In this document: piece by piece, positions 3,107 through 34,384 of the stretch | Position numbering within the stretch: position 1 is the first letter of the stretch | Layout: every line of letters starts with the position of its first letter | DNA from: a virus | Taxonomy: Duplodnaviria > Caudoviricetes | IMG/VR virus record: IMGVR_UViG_3300022670_000561 | Location: 1 to 37,522 of that record | Direction: 5' to 3' (one strand) | DNA: 37,522 nucleotides | Made by a program: the position numbers and the translations under genes | Notes under the pieces: model-generated | What the model saw: the letters and a program-made list of their open reading frames with translations, nothing else | The model's database searches: none | What the model was told of the DNA's origin: nothing

Positions 3107-3656
3107 TGAAGTACTGAGTCCGTTTCCTTATTATGCGGACCCGACCAGAGGGCGTCCTGTAACTAATGGTTTTTTGTTCATTGGTGAAGCGGGCAGTTTA
3201 GACCCTCGGGCCACAGTCAATCAAAAAACAGTGACGGCCATACAAGCTGATCAATCGACGTTCACCATTGGCCAGCCGATCCAGCTAGGCGCTGGTGGCT
3301 TGGCTGAATTTAACGGTACTCCTGTGGTTCTGCAAGTCGAGGGCGCATATTCAATTCTGGTAACCGATAGCAACAAAAACCAAGTATTGTTTTTTGACAC
3401 GGTTGTAAATGGCACCGCACCTTCTTTGCTGATACGTAATATCTTTTCTGATGTCAATTTAGGTATTCCAAGGCGGCTCATCAATGCAACTTTGTTTGCG
3501 GCAAATACACTGTTTATTGATCTTTATAACGCTAATACACCATTCATTGATTACGGTGTATTCACTGAGCCATCACCATTCGAATTATCGGATTTACCTG
3601 TTAATAGAATCGACTATTTTCAAGGCAATTCCATCATAGATTTTGGAGAAATTTAA
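3093..3656 (+). CDS. Tailspike head-binding domain adaptor protein
   Basis: N-terminal ~105 aa resemble the P22 tailspike head-binding domain (V.NG.LFIG...DP...NQ..V...QPI.....G...NG..V......YS..V.D....QV). Short C-terminus with ID(Y/F)G-type motifs; no beta-helix. Confidence 0.85.
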   Translation: MAETNEVLSPFPYYADPTRGRPVTNGFLFIGEAGSLDPRATVNQKTVTAIQADQSTFTIGQPIQLGAGGLAEFNGTPVVLQVEGAYSILVTDSNKNQVLFFDTVVNGTAPSLLIRNIFSDVNLGIPRRLINATLFAANTLFIDLYNANTPFIDYGVFTEPSPFELSDLPVNRIDYFQGNSIIDFGEI

Positions 3657-4768
3657 TGTCAGATCAGGTACAAATTAAAGGCGGTTCAACTTCAGCTCAT
3701 TCCTCATTTACAGGAGCAGAAAGAGAGTTAACCGTAGATACAGATAAAAAAGCTATTGTTGTTCATGATGGTGTGACAATAGGCGGGTTTCCGCAAGCTG
3801 TTCAACAAAGGGTTGATAATGGCACTAGACTCTATACTGATGCCGTTGGCAGCGGTTCAATTGCAGACAGTTACATATTTGAACCAAAAGATACCAGCTT
3901 TTTGCCGGATGTTTATGAAGATGGCTTACAGTTCACTTGTTTCATTGAAAACCCAAATACTGGCGTAGCCGTAACAATCGATCTCATTGGCCTGGGGCCA
4001 ACGGATACGCGGACTCAGGATGGCTCTATACCTATAGCTGGCACTATAAGCGGCTATACCACTTTTGCTTTTAACGACACGGCTGGACGTATTGATATTA
4101 TTCCGAGGGGAGAGGATAATATTGTTACGTTAGTTACATTAAACACAGTGTATATTACTGCAACAGGCGCATATAATCCATCTCTTGGCACAGTATATAT
4201 TAAATTTACTCCTACTGCCGGTGGCGGCGGTGGCGGCGGTGTTGATGGGCAAGGAGCAGGAACAACAGCAAATGGCCACCCTGGTGCGGCTGGAGGAACT
4301 TTAATAAAAGAAACAAGCATTATTGAGGCATCTTATGCAATCGCTATTGGCGCTGGAGGAATTGCTGGCCCTTCTGGCTCTAATTCTGGCGGGAATGGAG
4401 GTGATACAACAATTACATCTGTTAATGTCAATACAACTAGTTTTGGTGGTCCGGGTGGCACTGGTGTGACTGGGACGTCTGGTGACTTAGGGCTAGGAAA
4501 TATAGTATTAGGAGGGTCAACATCAGGGGGCGATATAGAAATTATCGGCGGTCCGGGCATCCAAGGTGGTGTTGTTGGTGGCAAAATTTCAAGCACGGGT
4601 CAATCGGGTCAATCATATTGGGGTCCTGGTGGGCACCGCTTGAGTTTGAATGCTTCAAATAAAGGAAGCGGTGGTGGTTCACAAATAATATCTGGAGTTG
4701 CAACCAACTTTGCTGGCGGTGCTGGTGCCCCCGGTATTGTTGTAGCTCAAGAGTTAATAAATATCTAA
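3656..4768 (+). CDS. Receptor-binding/tail fiber protein: Mtd N-terminal-like domain plus glycine-rich C-terminal domain
   Basis: MSDQVQIKGGSTSAHSSFTGAERELTVDTDKKAIVVHDGVTIGGFP closely resembles the N-terminus of Bordetella phage BPP-1 Mtd. C-terminal GGGGGG...GGAGAPGIVV region. TAATG coupling to the adaptor gene. Confidence 0.8.
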   Translation: MSDQVQIKGGSTSAHSSFTGAERELTVDTDKKAIVVHDGVTIGGFPQAVQQRVDNGTRLYTDAVGSGSIADSYIFEPKDTSFLPDVYEDGLQFTCFIENPNTGVAVTIDLIGLGPTDTRTQDGSIPIAGTISGYTTFAFNDTAGRIDIIPRGEDNIVTLVTLNTVYITATGAYNPSLGTVYIKFTPTAGGGGGGGVDGQGAGTTANGHPGAAGGTLIKETSIIEASYAIAIGAGGIAGPSGSNSGGNGGDTTITSVNVNTTSFGGPGGTGVTGTSGDLGLGNIVLGGSTSGGDIEIIGGPGIQGGVVGGKISSTGQSGQSYWGPGGHRLSLNASNKGSGGGSQIISGVATNFAGGAGAPGIVVAQELINI

Positions 4769-8543: not shown

Positions 8544-8792
8544 TTAAGTACGGTGCAGATAGACTAATATAGCAGCCAACTGATTAACACGTTTGAATAC
8601 TTTGCCAGCTTCAATGTATTGAACTGTGCGTAGATTAATGCCAAGGGCCTTGGCAAATTTAGGCTGTGACAAGCCCAGATCAACTCGAATTTTAACAAAA
8701 TCAGACGGTGTCACTGTCGGTAATTTCGTTCCTTTTTTGTAATCCATCTTGATTAATTTGAAATTGAATTTCTTATCTAGAGATTTAGACAT
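8544..8792 (-). CDS. Small XRE-family HTH regulator
   Basis: IRVDLGLSQPKFAKALGINLRTVQYIEAG. Confidence 0.8.
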   Translation of the reverse strand: MSKSLDKKFNFKLIKMDYKKGTKLPTVTPSDFVKIRVDLGLSQPKFAKALGINLRTVQYIEAGKVFKRVNQLAAILVYLHRT

Positions 8793-8849
8793 GCTATAAT
8801 ACCCATTATATAATTAACTTATTATACCGAAATTATAGCATGATCTCAA
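8790..8849 (-). promoter_or_regulatory. Promoter with inverted-repeat operator candidate
   Basis: TTGAGA-17-TATAAT (8849-8821); 11-bp inverted repeat CATGCTATAAT (8790-8800) / ATTATAGCATG (8832-8842). Confidence 0.6.
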
Positions 8850-12167: not shown

Positions 12168-12945
12168 AGAAAAAGAGCCAGGATTTACAATGATTAAAAA
12201 TGAGCTGTTAGATGAAATACTAAGACAAGATTTTAGCAAAACAGAGCTTAAAGTTCTGTTGGCAATAGCACGTCAAACCTGGGGCTGGCAAAAAGAAGTT
12301 GACGATATTTCGCTGTCAAGGCTGTCAGAAATGACAGGAATTAGCAAAGCTAACTTGTCCAGAGCCGTCAATTCATTGTCTGAAAAGGGCGTTATAAGCA
12401 AAAAAAATGGCGAATATGGCCAATCATTGCAGGTCAATAAATGCGCTAAAGAGTGGGTTTCTGACTCAGGCGTTGTTAAAACAACAACCCCCGGCGGGTT
12501 GTTAAAACAACAACGGGGGGGTTGTCAAAACAACAACTCAGGGGTTGTTGTTTTAACAACTACAAAAGAAACTATCAAAACAAACTATCAAAAGAAAAAA
12601 AAGAAAGTAAAGAAAAAGGAAATCTCTCTTGTCGATTTTCTGAAAGAAATGTCAGAGAAGGGCGAAAAGGGGATTCAGCCAAATGATAAAATTTTTGACT
12701 ACGGCAGGGCGGTCGGTGTAAGCGACGAAATGTTGATGACGGCATGGCACAAGTTCAAAGATTTCTACATTGGAAAAGTTGACAAAAAACAAAAAGACTG
12801 GCGGGCGGTTTTTAGAAATTGTGTAAAGGACAATTGGTACGCATATTGGGGTATTCCCGATCATGATGATGAACCGGCCTACTGGACAAGCAAAGGCAAA
12901 CAAAAGCGGAGAGAGGTTAAAAAATTTAATCATGGTTTTGAATAA
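12160..12945 (+). CDS. Replication initiator, lambda O-like
   Basis: GFTMIKNELLDEIL...ELKVLLAIARQTWGWQK..D.IS.S.LSEMTG N-terminal domain; internal iterons; upstream of DnaB. Confidence 0.9.
   Translation: MNKEKEPGFTMIKNELLDEILRQDFSKTELKVLLAIARQTWGWQKEVDDISLSRLSEMTGISKANLSRAVNSLSEKGVISKKNGEYGQSLQVNKCAKEWVSDSGVVKTTTPGGLLKQQRGGCQNNNSGVVVLTTTKETIKTNYQKKKKKVKKKEISLVDFLKEMSEKGEKGIQPNDKIFDYGRAVGVSDEMLMTAWHKFKDFYIGKVDKKQKDWRAVFRNCVKDNWYAYWGIPDHDDEPAYWTSKGKQKRREVKKFNHGFE
12472..12620. repeat. Replication origin: four 17-bp iterons plus A-rich tract
   Basis: GTTGT(T/C)AAAACAACAAC at 12472, 12498 and 12521; inverted copy at 12544-12560; A-rich tract follows. Confidence 0.85.
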
Positions 12946-20914: not shown

Positions 20915-20947
20915 GACGGTATTGTTTCGTTTAAAGGATTGCGCTTT

Positions 20948-21376
20948 ATGATTATTACTTTATCTAAATTAGAACGTGAGCTTGAATTATTTGGGCTTAA
21001 TATACATGCGGAAAAAGGACTTGGAGTTATAATAACTGAGCTTGTTAAAACTTATATGCTCAATAGCGACGGCTATGGTCAGGGGCAGGCTGATAATGAA
21101 GCCTTAGGGTTATTTGTTAGATTTGTGCAAACTGGCTTGCTGTCGCCGTTAACCGGCGAGAATGACGAATGGGATGAGGTTGGACATCAGAATAAACGTG
21201 ACAGCGATGTGTTTAAAGACGTTCACGGCGAAGCGTACTGGACAAAAGGTAAAATATTTAGAAAATATGGCGGCTCAAAATTTTTAAATAGAGATAGTTG
21301 GGTTTATATAGATTTTCCTTGGAGCAAACCAGGGTCTACAATTGTTGATGTTGATGACGATGAAAACGTTTTATAG
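20948..21376 (+). CDS. Conserved phage protein (SPLTGE.DEW family), copy 1
   Basis: LSPLTGENDEW...QNKR...FK...AYW..G.IFR...I.FPW; AAAGGA RBS before the ATG at 20948. Confidence 0.7.
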   Translation: MIITLSKLERELELFGLNIHAEKGLGVIITELVKTYMLNSDGYGQGQADNEALGLFVRFVQTGLLSPLTGENDEWDEVGHQNKRDSDVFKDVHGEAYWTKGKIFRKYGGSKFLNRDSWVYIDFPWSKPGSTIVDVDDDENVL

Positions 21377-22124: not shown

Positions 22125-22580
22125 ATGGGTTTAATTGAGCACGCTAAAAGAGAATTTGAAGTTCAAGGCTGGCCTGGCGATGACGTTGATAGTATGCAAA
22201 AAATCGTCTGTGATAACATCATGGAATTGATAGAGGTCTTTTCAAAGCAAGGACATTCAGGTACTACAGCGCCTTACGTTATAAATCTTTTCAAAAGATT
22301 GGCTGGGTATGAGCCAATATCACCGCTCACCGGTGAAGATAATGAATGGCGGGATGTTGGTCATGACCGTGATAGCGGTGACAGCCTTTTCCAAAATAAA
22401 CGCGCCACTGGGATTTTTAAAGATAAATCAGGAGCCTATTGGTCAGATGCTGTCATATTTAGAGACCCGGACGGTGGCACTTATGTGAACGTAAATAGCC
22501 GTGGGCCGATAGAGTTCCCCTGGACTTGGCCTGAAAAACGGGAAATTATTGACGTGGATAAGGACGGCAATCCTTTTTAA
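22125..22580 (+). CDS. SPLTGE.DEW family, full-length copy 3
   Basis: LIEHAKRE...ELIEVFSKQGHSG...PISPLTGEDNEW...FQNKR...IEFPW. Confidence 0.75.
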   Translation: MGLIEHAKREFEVQGWPGDDVDSMQKIVCDNIMELIEVFSKQGHSGTTAPYVINLFKRLAGYEPISPLTGEDNEWRDVGHDRDSGDSLFQNKRATGIFKDKSGAYWSDAVIFRDPDGGTYVNVNSRGPIEFPWTWPEKREIIDVDKDGNPF

Positions 22581-22740: not shown

Positions 22741-23406
22741 TTGACTACTATAGTAGCGGTACGCAAAGACAATAAAGTATGCATCGGAGCTGATTCGTTG
22801 GTGACGGTCGGTGATAATACGGCTATGAGATCTTCTTACTCGAATGATTTTAGTAAAATCATAAATATTCATGAAAATTATATTGGAATGTCGGGCAGTT
22901 GTGCACATGCTGAAGCAATAAAAGATATTGCAAGGCGCAATCTTTTTGGAGAAAATTTAGTATTAAATGGCGTTGATACAGACAAAAGAGTTTTGACGCT
23001 AAAGACAAGAAGTGATGTTTTTAAGTTTTCGCTTTATTTGCATTATATTTTGAACGATGAGTATTGTTTAAACACAAAGCCAGTCGATGACGATGTATAT
23101 AATCCAAGCCATTTCAGTTTTTTGATTGCCAACAAATACGGGATATTTGGCGTCTATCACTATAGAGAAGTTGACGAGTTGACCAATTTTTGGGCAATAG
23201 GTAGCGGTGCTAAATTTGCGCTTGGTGCAATGTATTCAGAAGATGACTCGATTGCAGGAATGAGCGAAGACAGTGTGGTGACAGCAGGCAGAGTAGCACG
23301 GGCAGGTTTACTTTCTGCAATTGAGTTTGATTCTTCTACAGCCGGGCCGATTGAATTAATATCACTTGATCTAGTAAGCGATAGCAGTGATAGCGATGAC
23401 GATTGA
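22741..23406 (+). CDS. Proteasome beta-subunit/HslV-family Ntn protease, most like BPH (betaproteobacterial proteasome homolog)
   Basis: N-terminal (M)TTIVAV...IGADS, KI, IGMSGS.AH, LIAN.YGIFGVY..REV, FWAIGSG..FALGAM, EFD; TTG start with AGGAG RBS. Confidence 0.85.
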   Translation: MTTIVAVRKDNKVCIGADSLVTVGDNTAMRSSYSNDFSKIINIHENYIGMSGSCAHAEAIKDIARRNLFGENLVLNGVDTDKRVLTLKTRSDVFKFSLYLHYILNDEYCLNTKPVDDDVYNPSHFSFLIANKYGIFGVYHYREVDELTNFWAIGSGAKFALGAMYSEDDSIAGMSEDSVVTAGRVARAGLLSAIEFDSSTAGPIELISLDLVSDSSDSDDD

Positions 23407-29142: not shown

Positions 29143-29378
29143 GTAAGGGCAAAGTTAGAATAATTGAATGGCGCAAATTCGAATTGCCCGACCAATCATA
29201 TTATATTGAAATAGCTGACCCTAAGTGCTGTGAGCCATTATCTCGCACAGAGCGATATAAGCTCAGGCTCGTGTATTTAGCAGAAGAGCTGGCAAGGGCA
29301 TTTCATAAGTTGAAAATTAAATTTTATTTTTTTCTCATTAGAATATTGGATAATCTTATCAAAAGGCTAGATAAATGA
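29139..29378 (+). CDS. Hypothetical protein between TerL and portal
   Basis: GTGA and ATGA overlaps on the two sides. Confidence 0.5.
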   Translation: MSKGKVRIIEWRKFELPDQSYYIEIADPKCCEPLSRTERYKLRLVYLAEELARAFHKLKIKFYFFLIRILDNLIKRLDK

Positions 29379-31450
29379 GCTTTGAAATAGAAGAATTGAA
29401 GGACATGCACGAGCGTGCGCATGTTGCTAATCGAGACAATGCGAAAGAAGCAACCGACGATGCGTACTTTCATCATATCAGTCAATGGGATGCTGACATT
29501 AAGAGCGCGTCATCTCTTCGACTCGAAGCTACATTTGATATTACAAGCAAAGCGGTTAGGAGAATGACAGGCAAGCTTGAAAATGCTCAGGTGAATATTG
29601 ATTTTGAAGTTGAGGACGAAGACAGGCGAGACGGTGCGGATGTTGCTGACGGTATGTATTTGAACGACAATCGTTTGAACTCATCGAAAGAAGCCGTTGA
29701 TAATGCAATATTAGAAATGGTTGTAAGCGGCATGGGTGCATGGGAGGTGTACACGACATACAAGACCAACAGCATGGGTGACAATCATCAAGTCATTCGT
29801 AGACGCCCCATTTTCGAAGCATATAGAACATGTTTAATTGACCCTGACGCGACTCTGCGTGACAAATCTGATGCTGATTTTATGTCAGTAATCACTGGCT
29901 TTACTGAAGATGGTTACAAAAAGGCTGTTAAGGATTTGACAGGCGAGGAGCCAAATATAATTGACTCGTTCTATGAGCCTGAGCGTGATTATAAGTTTCG
30001 GTGGTATTCACGTGGGATTGAAGAAGTCATATACATAACGTCATTTTATCATCGCGAAAAAGTCAAAGACAATATATTAAGGCTCGTAAATCCATACAAT
30101 GAAGAGATGTTAATAAGTGAACACAGTATTGAGTCGGTGATGGATGAATTAGTTGAAGGCGGCTATCAAATTGACTTCGTTAAAGAGATCGAGCGCTGGG
30201 AAGTCATGCGTTACATAGCCACAGGCGAAGACATAATTAAAAGAGAAGCTGTAGCGGGTGAGCATATCCCGATAACCCCGATGTATGGGGAGCGAGGGTA
30301 TATTGACAGGATCGAGACATACCAAGGTTTCATAAGAAAAGCTAAAGACCCTCAGCGACTCCACAACTTTCAGAATTGTTATGTAATGGATGTCGTGTCA
30401 ACATCTCCTGCGGCTAAACCTATGTTTTATCCAGAACAAATAGCCGGGTTAACTGACATGTATCAAGAAAATGGAGCCGATAATCGGTTTCCCTATTATT
30501 TGATAAGAAAAACCACGGCAAAAGGCGAGCAGTTACCTGAGGGGCCTGTCGGTCAAATGCCTGGGCCAATTCTACCTGATGCGATACTTCAGTCAATTGA
30601 GCTATCGCGCCGCTCTGTTGAGGATGTAGCGAGCGTAGGCGTTGAAAAGGATATGCGAGACCCTGATCTTTCGGGCAAGGCGTACGAGGTCATTCAGGTC
30701 AATACAGACGAACAGACTGCCATCTATTTGAACTTTGTGAAATATGCCAAACGTCGTGATGCTGAGATATGGGCATCCATGGCAAGTCAAACGTATGACA
30801 CACCGCGAACTGTCAACATATCAAGAAGGGATGGCTCACGTGATAGCGTCGAGCTAATGAAAACAGTAATTGATGAAGAGACCGGTAATGTTGCTGTATT
30901 AAACGACATTACCAACATTCAATTTGAGGTATATGCTGAAGTAAGTACTAGTTATTCGACTAAACGTGATCAAACGATTGACAGGCTGTCAAATTTACAA
31001 GCAAAAATGGACCCGTCTGATCCTAAGAGTTCTATTTTGACACTGAAAGTGATGGAGTTAATGGACGGTGTTGACCTAGATGACATACGCAAATACGCAC
31101 GCAGAGAGCAAATGATCCAGGGTATAATAGAGCCAGAGTCAGACGAAGAGAAAGAATTCATGCAACAAATGGCAAATAAAGAGCAGGAGCCATCAGCTGA
31201 GATGGTCTACGCACAAGCTGCGCAGATGAAAGAAGAGCGCGAAGCAATCAAAGACCAGGCCAATAATGAGATAGCGAGATTAAAAGAGCAAACATCTACA
31301 TTTAAGGCAATAACTGAACGCGAAAAGGTCAAGATAGCAGCACATGAAGCTGGTGCAGAAATCAACTTCAAGAATCTTAGGGCTACAGGGCAGCAGATTG
31401 ATAATGTATTAAAACTTGGCGGGTCACTGAGGGCGAATGTTAATGGATAA
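29375..31450 (+). CDS. Portal protein, P22 gp1-like
   Basis: 691 aa; QW, SGMGAW, DP.A...DKSDA, GEHIPI.P.YGE and AKDPQRL.N motifs; Gln/Ala-rich C-terminal barrel region. Confidence 0.93.
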   Translation: MSFEIEELKDMHERAHVANRDNAKEATDDAYFHHISQWDADIKSASSLRLEATFDITSKAVRRMTGKLENAQVNIDFEVEDEDRRDGADVADGMYLNDNRLNSSKEAVDNAILEMVVSGMGAWEVYTTYKTNSMGDNHQVIRRRPIFEAYRTCLIDPDATLRDKSDADFMSVITGFTEDGYKKAVKDLTGEEPNIIDSFYEPERDYKFRWYSRGIEEVIYITSFYHREKVKDNILRLVNPYNEEMLISEHSIESVMDELVEGGYQIDFVKEIERWEVMRYIATGEDIIKREAVAGEHIPITPMYGERGYIDRIETYQGFIRKAKDPQRLHNFQNCYVMDVVSTSPAAKPMFYPEQIAGLTDMYQENGADNRFPYYLIRKTTAKGEQLPEGPVGQMPGPILPDAILQSIELSRRSVEDVASVGVEKDMRDPDLSGKAYEVIQVNTDEQTAIYLNFVKYAKRRDAEIWASMASQTYDTPRTVNISRRDGSRDSVELMKTVIDEETGNVAVLNDITNIQFEVYAEVSTSYSTKRDQTIDRLSNLQAKMDPSDPKSSILTLKVMELMDGVDLDDIRKYARREQMIQGIIEPESDEEKEFMQQMANKEQEPSAEMVYAQAAQMKEEREAIKDQANNEIARLKEQTSTFKAITEREKVKIAAHEAGAEINFKNLRATGQQIDNVLKLGGSLRANVNG

Positions 31451-31588: not shown

Positions 31589-31840
31589 ATGGATAAAGAT
31601 AATAGCGAGTATTACCGTCAATTTGCTGAAGGTATGGCGCGACATACGTCAAATAATTTTAATGCAGAAAATATTGAACTTCTTTTACAAGCGTTCGAAA
31701 CGGAATACGAAAAACACGGCCCGCATAATGAAAGCGGATGTTTGGATATTTCGAAGATAAAATTTAATCATCCGATTTATTCAGATGAAGAGATTGAGTG
31801 TATGCTTGAACAACTTGAAGCAATACAAGGCGGGGAGTGA
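31589..31840 (+). CDS. Hypothetical acidic protein
   Basis: GAGGG RBS; 83 aa. Confidence 0.55.
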   Translation: MDKDNSEYYRQFAEGMARHTSNNFNAENIELLLQAFETEYEKHGPHNESGCLDISKIKFNHPIYSDEEIECMLEQLEAIQGGE

Positions 31841-31846
31841 TATAAT
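31838..31846 (+). promoter_or_regulatory. Extended -10 promoter
   Basis: TGATATAAT (TGnTATAAT); predicted TSS ~31853 at the base of the first stem. Confidence 0.6.
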
Positions 31847-31852
31847 AGCGGG

Positions 31853-32224
31853 ACTAGAGTGATTGAAATATGGCTAGTTTAGACCGGAAAGCATACCTAA
31901 ATTACTCTAGATATAGGAAGAAACAGCGGGTTGATTTTGATGGATTGATCGACAGCTAACCGGCTTAGCGCGCTCTGAAAGTTCTTCTTATCGGCCACGG
32001 TTACGACAGAAACCCAGGCGCTCTGCAACCGGGGCGCCGACACATTATTTCTGGTATAATGCAGGGGATTATAAGAGGTTGACGCAGTTAAGCGAGGCTG
32101 CGCATTTGATGAGAATAGACGCGGTATACGCACTTTGATATACCATATTTTCTTATTCAATTTGGTTAAGTGCAGGCAACTTGAGCACCTCAATCGACGT
32201 AGCAAAGGCTGCTTGCACTTGATC
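31853..32224 (+). ncRNA. Candidate large structured RNA or cluster of small RNAs
   Basis: At least 7 consecutive stem domains with many G-U pairs, including a 15-bp stem 32164-32178/32210-32224; no long + strand ORF. Confidence 0.65.
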
Positions 32225-32234
32225 TTTGATTTGT

Positions 32235-32310
32235 AGCGGGGTAGCTCAGTCTGGTAGAGCATTGGACTCAAAACCATGTGCGCAGGTTCGAATCCTGCCC
32301 TCCCCGGCCA
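32235..32310 (+). tRNA. Aberrant tRNA-like gene (nominal anticodon CAA; possibly a pseudogene)
   Basis: Canonical D-arm (TAGCTCAGTCTGGTAGAGC), T-arm (GCAGG-TTCGAAT-CCTGC) and 3' CCA; anticodon and acceptor stems are imperfect. Confidence 0.7.
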
Positions 32311-32320
32311 GCAATCATAT

Positions 32321-32797
32321 TCACTTGCAAAAATAATGTAACGGCGCGTCAATTATTTTGCCTGAGAACATAACATAACAGCAGTATTCAAAAAAGATCA
32401 CTAATCGCTCAACACCGTAATCATCTTTATCATAAGTTGTATTTATAATCTTCTTATCTAAAGACAGCTCTACATTTCCTCCAAGAAGAAAATGCGGCGC
32501 ATCAGGTTTACGGTTGAGTCTTGCTGTCAGCGTTTCGATACATCGATCATGAATCATGCCTTCTTTAAGTTCCAGCGCGTTTAACGAATCCATACGCATT
32601 CTTGAACTATTATTTATAATTGAATAATCCCTGTCCGGCATTTCTGCACCTGCTGGTATTTCTATGTTTAATTGAGATACATTGTGGTGAGTGGTGAATA
32701 TTAATGGTTTTTCTCTCTTCTCCGCATGAATTCTCACGGTCTGTAGACCGAAGTCATCGTTTTCTACTTTAATGCTGGTGATTAGATCATATGCCAC
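32321..32797 (-). CDS. Hypothetical protein (moron-like, antisense to late genes)
   Basis: GGAGGT RBS before GTG; 158 aa. Confidence 0.65.
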   Translation of the reverse strand: MAYDLITSIKVENDDFGLQTVRIHAEKREKPLIFTTHHNVSQLNIEIPAGAEMPDRDYSIINNSSRMRMDSLNALELKEGMIHDRCIETLTARLNRKPDAPHFLLGGNVELSLDKKIINTTYDKDDYGVERLVIFFEYCCYVMFSGKIIDAPLHYFCK

Positions 32798-33146
32798 GGT
32801 TAACCTCCATTTATTGACTCCTTGTTAATTGCCTAAGCCGCAATTATATCATGTTTCATATTTCAGTTATAGCAACTACCAATACATTCGCTTAAATCCT
32901 TGATTCCATTTCGACCCAAACTAAGCATTATTTTCTTCGCAGTTTGGGTCGACAGCTCACCTGCCCTGTGCTAAGGACGAGATTACTCGACACATACATG
33001 CGACAACATGTATGCATGGAGTTGATTTACCTGGAAAGAGCAATACGATCACGCTGTGACAAATCATAAATACACAAAGAGTGTTTTTACATTATACGTC
33101 CTATATCGACATAACCGTTACCCTTATGTCGAATAAGTCAATCTAT

Positions 33147-33174
33147 TTGACTTATGTCAATATGTGAGTAAAAT
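33147..33174 (+). promoter_or_regulatory. Scaffold/coat operon promoter with overlapping inverted repeats
   Basis: TTGACT-16-TAAAAT; IRs TCGACATAA/TTATGTCGA, ATAAGTCAA/TTGACTTAT and TTGAC-TTAT-GTCAA. Confidence 0.65.
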
Positions 33175-33180
33175 AGTAAA

Positions 33181-33280
33181 TACTGAGGCGACCAGGTAAA
33201 CGCAGCCCTACTCACGGGGTTAATCATGAGTACTACTGAGGTGTACAGGTAAACACGACCTTACTGGCGAGGCGCGCCAG
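33181..33280 (+). promoter_or_regulatory. Structured 5' leader of the scaffold gene with two 32-nt repeat units
   Basis: 33181-33212 and 33234-33265 are 25/32 identical with a compensatory C-G/T-A change; each is followed by a 6-bp hairpin. Confidence 0.7.
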
Positions 33281-33307
33281 GCAATCGTTTTATAAGCGAG
33301 TAAAAAA

Positions 33308-34384
33308 ATGGCAGAGACCTTGACCCTAGACGGGTTAAAAGCACAAGTGCAGAAAGAAGAGCTTGAAGCTAGTCAACAAGTTGATAAATCTGGTACGGAT
33401 GAAACCGTTAAAGATGATATTGACGCTGGCAGCTCTGGTGAATCTGAAACGTCTGAAGCTGACGATAAGTCAACCGATGGCATTGAAGCATGGCAGCAAG
33501 TTGACGATAAAGAGGGTCAATCAACAACTGATAACAGCCAATCTGGTTTTACGGGTCGAGATATAGCCGCAGCTAAAACAAAGCTAAGGGCAAAACTTGA
33601 TCTTAAAAAAGCAGATGAAATAAGTGATATCAACGCTAAACATGAGCTTCAGCTTGAAGAGTTGCGACGTAGCCTAAGCGGCAAAACGAATAACACTGTT
33701 AAGCCGAAGCATGATGATTTTGAAACGACTGATGACTATGAAACCGCTTTATATACGTGGCAAGAGGAACGTATAGAAGCACGTATTGATGCGAGAGTCA
33801 GCGATCATCTATCAAAATCGCAGGCTCAAAATGCTCAAAATCAAGCGGATACTGACTTAGAAAAATCTGTTACTCAGCACTACGAACGAGCAGCACAATT
33901 AGTTGATAAACATGAAGATATAACCGCCGAGGTGTATCACCAAGCTGACGCTAACGTGCGACACATGGTTGAAACACTGTATCCAGGCGCTGGTGACAAC
34001 GTGACTGACAGGCTTATTAAAGCACTCGATACTGTTGGCGGATCAGATAAAGTTTTTCTTAGAGTTGGTAGAAATAAAAAGCTACTCGCTCAATTAGAAA
34101 CAAGTTTGACGAGTGATCCCGATGGGTTCAAAGCCGTTGCCTTTTTATCAAATTTATCAGCTGAGAATACTGCACTCATTAAAAATAAAACGAGCCAAGC
34201 GCCAGAACCGCTATCTAATATAAAAGCTGCAGCCCCGATGGGGGATAAAACTTCGAATAATTTGCATAAGAAGTTTAAAGAAGCCGACAATTCTAAAACA
34301 CTTAGCGAAGCAGCTAAGATAAAAACAATGTTGGCAGCAAAAATTGAAGCTAGGAAATTAGGGGTGAATACTGACGTATGGTAA
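33308..34384 (+). CDS. Scaffolding protein, P22 gp8-like
   Basis: Acidic flexible N-terminus, KP..DDF....DYE.AL..W, HYERA..L; between portal and coat. Confidence 0.85.
   Translation: MAETLTLDGLKAQVQKEELEASQQVDKSGTDETVKDDIDAGSSGESETSEADDKSTDGIEAWQQVDDKEGQSTTDNSQSGFTGRDIAAAKTKLRAKLDLKKADEISDINAKHELQLEELRRSLSGKTNNTVKPKHDDFETTDDYETALYTWQEERIEARIDARVSDHLSKSQAQNAQNQADTDLEKSVTQHYERAAQLVDKHEDITAEVYHQADANVRHMVETLYPGAGDNVTDRLIKALDTVGGSDKVFLRVGRNKKLLAQLETSLTSDPDGFKAVAFLSNLSAENTALIKNKTSQAPEPLSNIKAAAPMGDKTSNNLHKKFKEADNSKTLSEAAKIKTMLAAKIEARKLGVNTDVW

Follow-up and report, generated by a model that had tools for sequence, protein, structure and literature searches.

The question raised by this locus is what is carried by the insert of 1,857 nt that separates the portal gene from the scaffold gene in the viral record IMGVR_UViG_3300022670_000561, and how the RNA candidate that sits in this insert is to be read. 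The window, i.e., the whole stretch of DNA analyzed, comprises the 37,522 bases of the record, which is 93% complete and belongs to a P22-like podophage with genes for terminase, portal, scaffold, capsid, DNA-transfer proteins, an O-like initiator and DnaB. Among the sequencing runs, the phage was best represented in a marine sediment run, which may be its source, and no RNA run was listed as containing it; a gammaproteobacterial host is a guess, made because its DnaB is about 44% like the DnaB of enterobacterial phages. The phage is isolated, with the nearest relative of its scaffold among 5.8 billion proteins being 38% identical and the related portals and capsids that were found reaching at most about 51% identity. 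The position of the candidate between portal and scaffold, proposed in the earlier note from the letters of the sequence, was borne out by the two genes bordering the slot:

29375..31450, plus strand: P22-like portal gene, left border of the slot (phrog_156, E 1.6e-95).
33308..34384, plus strand: scaffold gene, right border of the slot (phrog_8865, E 4e-5; nearest relative 38% identical).

Comparison of 78 distinct related slots revealed that 45 were shorter than 300 nt and 33 carried varied inserts; the portal–scaffold slot is a hypervariable accessory site, and an insert is dispensable for this head module because more than half of the slots are that short. For the packaging-associated role suggested in the earlier note, no evidence was obtained in either direction. 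An ORF-free gap of at least 300 nt was found in one of the 78 slots, although the same rule would hide the present element, which is crossed by an antisense frame. Twelve long related slots were scanned, and an RNA was found in two of them:

L083, 9868-9941: intact tRNA-Pro(TGG) in a related slot.
L031, 7206-7269: int-alpA RNA in a related slot.

Three frames adjoin or cross the candidate:

31589..31840, plus strand: orphan gene of 83 amino acids, whose stop overlaps promoter P1 (codon score +0.27, like real genes).
32321..32797, minus strand: ORF158, an orphan gene of 158 amino acids that runs towards the RNA and is preceded by an extended -10 box of its own at 32843-32851.
31897-32352, minus strand: antisense frame of 151 codons through the element, with a TTG start and without a ribosome-binding site.

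The product of the 83-aa gene matched only itself among 5.8 billion proteins; the protein search with ORF158 also found only itself, with no usable Atlas match and with two weak partial matches to Golvesin_C-domain proteins. The codon score of the 151-codon frame was -0.24, in the range of six of the seven shadow frames and lower than in any of the 13 likely genes that were scored; searches of Pfam and PHROGs with this frame gave nothing. Between ORF158 and the scaffold gene, a gene-free stretch of 510 nt contains a perfect 12-bp inverted repeat (32911-32952) and more hairpins (33075-33199), and the gene-free part of the slot at 32875-33199 has local z-scores of -3.5 to -3.75.

The motif TGnTATAAT, i.e., an extended -10 box, has nine copies in the genome where 2.8 would be expected, a number that none of 100 shuffles reached. 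Two perfect copies lie in the candidate, both facing the tRNA-like element described below, and a further one at 32843 precedes ORF158:

31838..31846, plus strand: P1, a perfect extended -10 box with G/C-rich bases behind it (motif match; predicted start at about 31853).
32052..32060, plus strand: P2, a second perfect extended -10 box (predicted start at about 32067).

P2 coincides with what had been described as a fourth RNA helix (TATAAT/ATTATA); both strands of that helix are present, but they form the extended -10 box within a 6-7-6 palindrome (32043-32061), and elements 4 and 5 fold with a z-score of only -1.08. Two nested transcripts are likely because the box is perfect at both 31838 and 32052, and, as judged from these motifs, the region is likely transcribed by the host polymerase. 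The promoters of the cassette are of the sigma-70 type, and the cassette measures about 500 nt. On the plus strand, no terminator was found behind the element, and the first terminator on the minus strand is at 31788. P1 and the promoter of ORF158 form an inverted pair (13/14). Elsewhere in the genome, two back-to-back extended -10 boxes lie in an inverted repeat at 8792-8840, before a helix-turn-helix gene (8544-8792, minus strand).

Downstream of P1, the following folded elements were delimited:

31854..31910, plus strand: hairpin 1, an 11-bp stem with an inner helix (pair probability 0.99; z = -3.41 for 31853-31911).
31913..31991, plus strand: domain 2, a branched fold that depends on the chosen boundaries (z = -1.56).
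32017..32038, plus strand: hairpin 3, 9 bp, G/C-rich (probability 0.97-0.99 up to 32310; z of domain 3 = -1.35).
32083..32160, plus strand: hairpins 5 and 6 (z = -2.19 for hairpin 6, 32105-32160).
32164..32224, plus strand: stem 7, 15 bp, the strongest element (probability 1.00; z = -4.61 for 32157-32229).

All 18 helix strands named in the earlier note were found at the expected positions; stems 1 and 7 were confirmed with 11 bp (1 G-U pair) and 15 bp (3 G-U pairs), and stem 3 has 9 bp including 2 G-U pairs. The closing helix of domain 2 is also present, although as 10 contiguous bp (31913-31922/31982-31991) and not as strands of 12 and 11 nt. The region 31838-32224 folds with -113.2 kcal, corresponding to z = -2.46 on the plus strand (1 of 100 shuffles equally good) and z = -1.47 on the minus strand. 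The comparison with shuffles that had been proposed thus gave a modest positive result for the whole stretch, with only hairpin 1 and stem 7 standing out alone (0 of 200 shuffles each). Helices of at least 9 bp numbered six against 1.9 in shuffles (P = 0.016), and a 15-bp helix arises in 1% of 500 shuffles. In the genome control, the 377-nt tile 31853-32229 ranked fourth among 99 plus-strand tiles by z (background mean -0.56, sd 1.24), second by raw energy and first after regression on GC and skew. Folding of the stretch is modestly above the genome background and not extreme; 11-bp helices are common in the genome (51 on the plus strand), the 15-bp stem 7 is the second longest on that strand, and comparable folding exists in other parts of the slot and in coding DNA. 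G-U pairs had been put forward as a sign of RNA-level selection, which did not hold: the difference between plus- and minus-strand energies ranked 24th among the 99 tiles (14th when corrected for skew), and the fold shows no strand preference beyond skew.

In every context folded up to 32310, pair probabilities of 0.94-1.00 were obtained for stems 1, 3 and 7 and for the inner helix of hairpin 6; domain 2 and elements 4 and 5 switch partners with the chosen boundaries, the 5' strand of domain 2 pairing with 32148-32156 instead if the fold extends to 32236. The 3' strand of hairpin 3 overlaps the left arm of an inverted repeat and is partly displaced if the transcript reaches 32350. Hairpin 5 can pair instead with the T arm of the tRNA-like element and does so in the free fold; this pairing was considered as a switch and rejected, its cost being ordinary (82 of 150 shuffles). 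Hairpin 1 contains what we take to be a tetraloop-receptor-like pair. Three loose GACG...GCAY(T)TTGAT frames around variable hairpins were drawn by eye within 32081-32223 on the plus strand (32081-32110, 32118-32140 and 32196-32223); the motif occurs nowhere else in the genome, was never doubled in 5000 shuffles and is kept in run X2 (see below). No tandem array is claimed, since an unbiased self-alignment was matched by 15 of 150 shuffles. A pattern search with the thrice-repeated motif gave 7 viral and 24 metagenome matches, which were judged to be chance; they had neither a tRNA nor nhmmer support, and 21 of the 24 metagenome matches were in open frames of at least 115 codons.

Behind stem 7 lies the element that gives the locus its most recognizable feature:

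32237..32310, plus strand: tRNA-like element (Rfam tRNA model, ARAGORN, constrained folds).

The tRNA-like gene that had been announced is real (Rfam tRNA model, 44.2 bits; ARAGORN, tRNA-???). Its D stem (4/4), T stem (5/5) and T loop are intact, and CCA is at 32308-32310. The anticodon arm is one base short (a one-base gap in the Rfam alignment, with two letters as the ARAGORN anticodon) and does not form the canonical 5-bp stem with a 7-nt loop; a 7-bp acceptor in register with the T stem would contain three non-pairs, and the acceptor folds best as five G-C pairs with a 3-nt bulge, at a cost of 0.6 kcal versus 5.9 kcal in register. The lesions are confined to the acceptor and anticodon arms, and the elbow and CCA are untouched. 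It should be noted that the intactness of the D and T arms is partly a matter of ascertainment, since the same arms make tRNA remnants detectable. The element was 77-81% like phage Phe, Arg, Asn, Trp and Ile tRNAs and 84% like bacterial tRNA-Arg over 61 nt, and tRNAs with the CAU anticodon matched it up to 32270 with loose ends; since it is about equally like several tRNAs, no amino acid can be assigned to it.

An imperfect inverted repeat of about 40 nt encloses the 3' half of the candidate together with the tRNA-like element:

32034..32070, plus strand: left arm, with an 8-nt insertion holding P2 (17/20 complementary to 32328-32347).
32316..32347, plus strand: right arm, which also holds the last ORF158 codons and a minus-strand promoter-like site (-35/-10 match at 32342-32314).

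The 45 nt behind CCA pair with 32030-32070 at -30.4 kcal. With that trailer, none of 200 shuffles and none of 94 tiles reached this value; across the genome, it was reached by 12 of 412 placements of equal geometry, and by 2 of 277 when GC was similar. The arm having been noticed before testing, a fair P is 0.01-0.03. In a read-through transcript, 15 of the 20 core stalk pairs had probabilities of 0.75-0.94, and folding of the tRNA elbow cost 2.5 kcal with the stalk versus 8.3 kcal without it. The module 32034-32347, whose ends were chosen by hand, had z = -3.4 on the plus strand and -4.1 on the minus strand, values by which RNA and DNA are not told apart, and for the 495-nt span 31853-32347 z was only -1.7 on the plus strand. 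No target duplication was found in the sequence beside the arms, the arm motif is confined to these two sites, and neither a transposase nor an integrase was present among the 65 frames scanned in PHROGs. Because the inverted repeat closes behind the tRNA-like element, the unit probably ends at about 32347 and not at 32224. The idea of a single ornate RNA of 370 nt ending at 32224 thus found no support, the more so as a perfect extended -10 box stands mid-way in it.

Run X2 yielded pieces, covered at low depth, of a phage that is about 94% alike. They had 0 differences over 102 nt at 32215-32316 and 46 differences over 801 nt in the five other listed phage pieces; the unchanged 102 nt are weak evidence, since 6 of the 30 X2 pieces are at least 99% alike. 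X2 differs upstream of 32215 and behind 31707, its pieces being without cover over 31840-32107. Upstream of 32215, it keeps a 12-nt word (10/12 alike to 32195-32206), followed by 8 extra bases before the end of stem 7; the last 10 bases of stem 7 are kept, its inner part differs, and its partner arm is outside the X2 cover. Read by eye from one contig of depth 2, the comparison is weakly in accord with conservation of the stem, apart from a variable top, and of the damaged tRNA.

The supposition that no known family would be matched proved correct, the Rfam scan giving only tRNA. The search for homologs that had been suggested as a check (blastn, nhmmer, patterns, covariance models) yielded none for 31838-32234. 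Annotated phages matched only in the tRNA part or in words of at most 33 nt; no homolog was found in plasmids, in the 175 loci around related portal or capsid genes (blastn, nhmmer), in 50 more slots, or in viral and metagenome contigs searched with tRNA-like patterns. Among the 50 whole records behind those loci, 10 matched, all in the tRNA part or in words of at most 16 nt, and a homolog was found in 0 of 400 genomes of the class of G050. Single-sequence covariance models, run on 77 of 276 loci and on the window, gave a best outside match of E 0.9. The element is not described in the literature searched, of which few subscription papers formed a part; 10,006 viral candidate RNAs are catalogued in PMC10690425, and the cassette or the scaffold-leader motif treated below could be among them. 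Judged by its sequence, the RNA cassette is a non-coding-looking, promoter-led singleton that is new to the libraries searched.

The best explanation, which is tentative and to which a probability of about 0.45 is assigned, is that of a host-transcribed non-coding cassette from which host tRNA-processing enzymes would release a tRNA mimic unable to decode, together with a leader RNA, with a likely anti-defence role. It starts from direct observations (the position, the promoter matches, the helices, the pattern of tRNA damage, the inverted repeat and the lack of a family match) and continues with predicted steps. The P1 transcript would run from about 31853 to beyond 32347, and the arms of the inverted repeat would pair into a stalk that encloses hairpins 5-7 together with the tRNA-like domain, so that the elbow would fold at lower cost. 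Cleavage by RNase P is predicted at about 32237, with CCA becoming exposed when the 3' end is trimmed; the products would be a mimic of 74 nt ending in CCA and a leader of about 385 nt. A precursor starting from P2 would be shorter and would lack the stalk. Mimic and leader might then act as decoys against host defences that attack tRNA. This last step, the weakest one, is suggested by a CCA and an elbow that are intact without a usable anticodon, and by two anti-defence genes of the same phage:

20939-21376, plus strand: Tad3 gene (type I Thoeris inhibitor; E 1.8e-12).
22125-22580, plus strand: second Tad3 gene (type I Thoeris inhibitor; E 1.5e-33).

Beside the second Tad3 gene lies a gene encoding an HslV/proteasome-subunit-like peptidase (22741-23406, plus strand).

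For the cassette count the enrichment of TGnTATAAT, the codon score of -0.24 of the antisense frame, the first rank among 99 tiles in GC-adjusted energy, hairpin 1 and stem 7 beating all 200 shuffles, the lesion pattern, the X2 identity over 32215-32316, the trailer pairing of -30.4 kcal, the slot RNAs of L083 and L031, and the Tad3 genes; from the literature, RNAs of the T4 tRNA region (PMC3014915) and the action of RNase P on Y RNA (PMC4201824) can be added. Against it count the lack of a homolog, the modest overall z, the lack of strand preference, the better folding of 32034-32347 on the minus strand, the invasion of the T arm by hairpin 5, the lack of a terminator, the ascertainment of the D and T arms and the thin X2 data. 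In addition, the 5-bp acceptor may escape cleavage by RNase P because PMC4201824 ties it to 7 bp. A more specific proposal, which is unlikely, is that 31853-32347 represents a class of RNAs of about 500 nt in which an anticodon-stripped tRNA that retains its elbow and CCA is held by a stalk and released as a decoy against tRNA-attacking toxins and nucleases of the host; if true, the class would be an RNA-only counter-defence cassette moving like a moron gene. If a tRNA copy is indeed kept in a non-decoding form under a promoter of its own, it would offer a compact way to ask whether the shape of a tRNA is by itself enough to protect a phage, and with about 500 nt and sigma-70-type promoters the cassette is suited to testing in E. 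coli, independently of the host of the phage.

As the main rival reading, the same region could be a decaying tRNA cassette that was acquired with its promoters, consisting of a pseudogene, leftover processing or termination hairpins, chance folds and a roleless leader, which we regard as possible though rather doubtful. Decay fits the lesions in two tRNA arms, the singleton status of the cassette, the four of seven elements that are not significant alone, the divergence of the X2 relative upstream of 32215 and behind 31707 and the intact tRNA-Pro in the same slot of L083. Decay is opposed by the perfect match of P1 and P2 to the extended -10 motif, by the lack of damage in the elbow and CCA, and by the X2 relative, about 94% alike elsewhere, which has the same damaged tRNA without a change; it would also make relics or coincidences of the 15-bp stem and the inverted repeat around the tRNA-like element (P about 0.01 each). 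It is quite unlikely that the span from about 31853 to 32347 is one large folded RNA of a new family, i.e., a GOLLD/ROOL-like RNA-only assembly with an embedded tRNA-like domain. Its size, phage location and tRNA link would fit, GOLLD sometimes containing tRNAs according to PMC12286853, as would the closing stalk, the self-complementary CCGG in two loops (31886, 31960) and the tetraloop-receptor-like pair of hairpin 1 (2.6% of 3000 shuffles, three such pairs genome-wide); nevertheless, the GOLLD and ROOL models gave no matches, the z of the 495-nt span is only -1.7 on the plus strand, and the internal promoter and the singleton status are unlike the widespread GOLLD and ROOL.

There is a slim chance that the signal acts at the DNA level, 32034-32347 being a small inverted-repeat element or a pair of facing operator-promoters, with sense and antisense transcripts regulating ORF158. 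The inverted repeat works on both strands, a -10-like site adjoins each arm, P1 and the ORF158 promoter form the 13/14 inverted pair, and the ORF158 message could cross the whole element, since the first minus-strand terminator is at 31788; this reading is opposed by the lack of a target duplication beside the arms, the restriction of the arm motif to the two arm sites and the lack of a transposase or integrase in the 65 frames, and it leaves stems 1 and 7 unexplained. That the 151-codon minus-strand frame is a real gene and the folds are its by-products is very improbable: an open run of 140 codons appears in only 0.5% of 2000 shuffles, whereas the codon score, the TTG start without a ribosome-binding site, the course antisense through the tRNA, the lack of a Pfam or PHROG match and the 8 nt by which X2 is longer between shared anchors, which would shift the frame (by eye, one contig), speak against a gene. 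The reading preferred here remains that of a transcribed cassette cut into a tRNA mimic and a leader.

At the right end of the slot, a second RNA feature was found:

33233-33310, plus strand: conserved RNA motif directly before the scaffold start.
33181-33219: partial second copy of the motif.

The scaffold-leader motif consists of a short stem with a possible pseudoknot, a variable hairpin and a third stem at the start codon. Of 50 matches found in viral contigs with a pattern, 43 stood immediately before a scaffold homolog. An alignment of 15 distinct sequences has pairing bases in 93% of the cells and changes of both partners in 12 cells, which none of 500 shuffles reached, the structure having been drawn from the same alignment as was tested and the possible pseudoknot being invariant. 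The motif had no Rfam match and is better supported than the portal–scaffold cassette. Because the P22 scaffold is reported to autoregulate its own translation (bioRxiv 10.1101/2022.12.13.520362), the motif is, by analogy, likely a site of scaffold binding or autoregulation, and it would pinpoint where on the RNA such autoregulation acts in phages of this group. Elsewhere in the genome, the longest helices (17-18 bp, both strands) lie inside the O-like initiator gene at 12482-12632, a region that is probably the replication origin; a tail protein with a major-tropism-determinant N-terminal domain is encoded at 3656-4768 (plus strand), and no reverse transcriptase was found among the frames scanned. 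Among the related loci, eleven contigs (L158, L161-L168, L170 and L173), each with a related capsid gene, belong to one GTDB bin labelled Sansalvadorimonas; several are of whole-phage size, and they represent either many prophages or phage contamination of the bin.

To our knowledge, no function has been assigned to the phage RNAs that lie beside tRNAs (T4 RNAC/RNAD, GOLLD and ROOL), and the usual view of phage tRNAs is that they serve in decoding. The D arm, T arm and CCA are common to a canonical phage tRNA and the cassette copy, whereas the latter has no readable anticodon and its acceptor is out of register. The cassette was not matched by the model of GOLLD (RF02032, with its conserved 3' region), which had 0 matches in the genome at E 10 (cut-off 150 bits); likewise, ROOL (RF03087) had 0 matches, also in the Rfam scans (cut-off 99 bits), the control of the dedicated search having matched nowhere. 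Like GOLLD, the cassette occurs in a phage and adjoins a tRNA-like gene, and tRNAs sometimes lie inside GOLLD, according to PMC12286853; however, GOLLD and ROOL are large and widespread phage RNAs near tRNAs, whereas the cassette is smaller, has an internal promoter and is a singleton. An antitoxin mimic, also suggested in the earlier note, found no backing, as the ToxI model gave 0 matches and tandem near-identical repeats of 35-55 nt were lacking; there were also 0 matches to a group I intron core (control matched) and no tmRNA by ARAGORN or Rfam.

PMC3014915 and PMC12685909 describe T4 RNAC and RNAD (species 1 and 2) as small RNAs of unknown role from the tRNA region. These are about 138 and 118 nt long and lie beside working tRNAs, whereas the predicted leader of the cassette would comprise 385 nt before one damaged tRNA in a head operon. 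Y RNA of the YrlA type is, according to PMC4201824, a tRNA-derived RNA with the D and T arms inside a closing stem, which also occurs in phages and whose tRNA-like domain is cut by RNase P, cleavage being tied to a 7-bp acceptor. With the YrlA model (RF02553), the cassette scored 14.7 bits against a cut-off of 69 (E 0.07; control matched in 13 of 14 genomes), the Y_RNA model gave 0 matches in the genome, and no Ro60/TROVE gene was found in this one genome (record 93% complete), unlike the setting of Y RNA. The arms of the cassette are in normal tRNA order, and CCA follows the T arm. In signals of the mascRNA type, which are eukaryotic, a longer RNA carries at its 3' end a tRNA-like fold that has no anticodon function, and in RNase III stalks, known from rRNA, a long stem surrounds a stable RNA; by analogy, the cassette may be likened to both, with its non-decoding tRNA-like fold and the long stem that encloses it.
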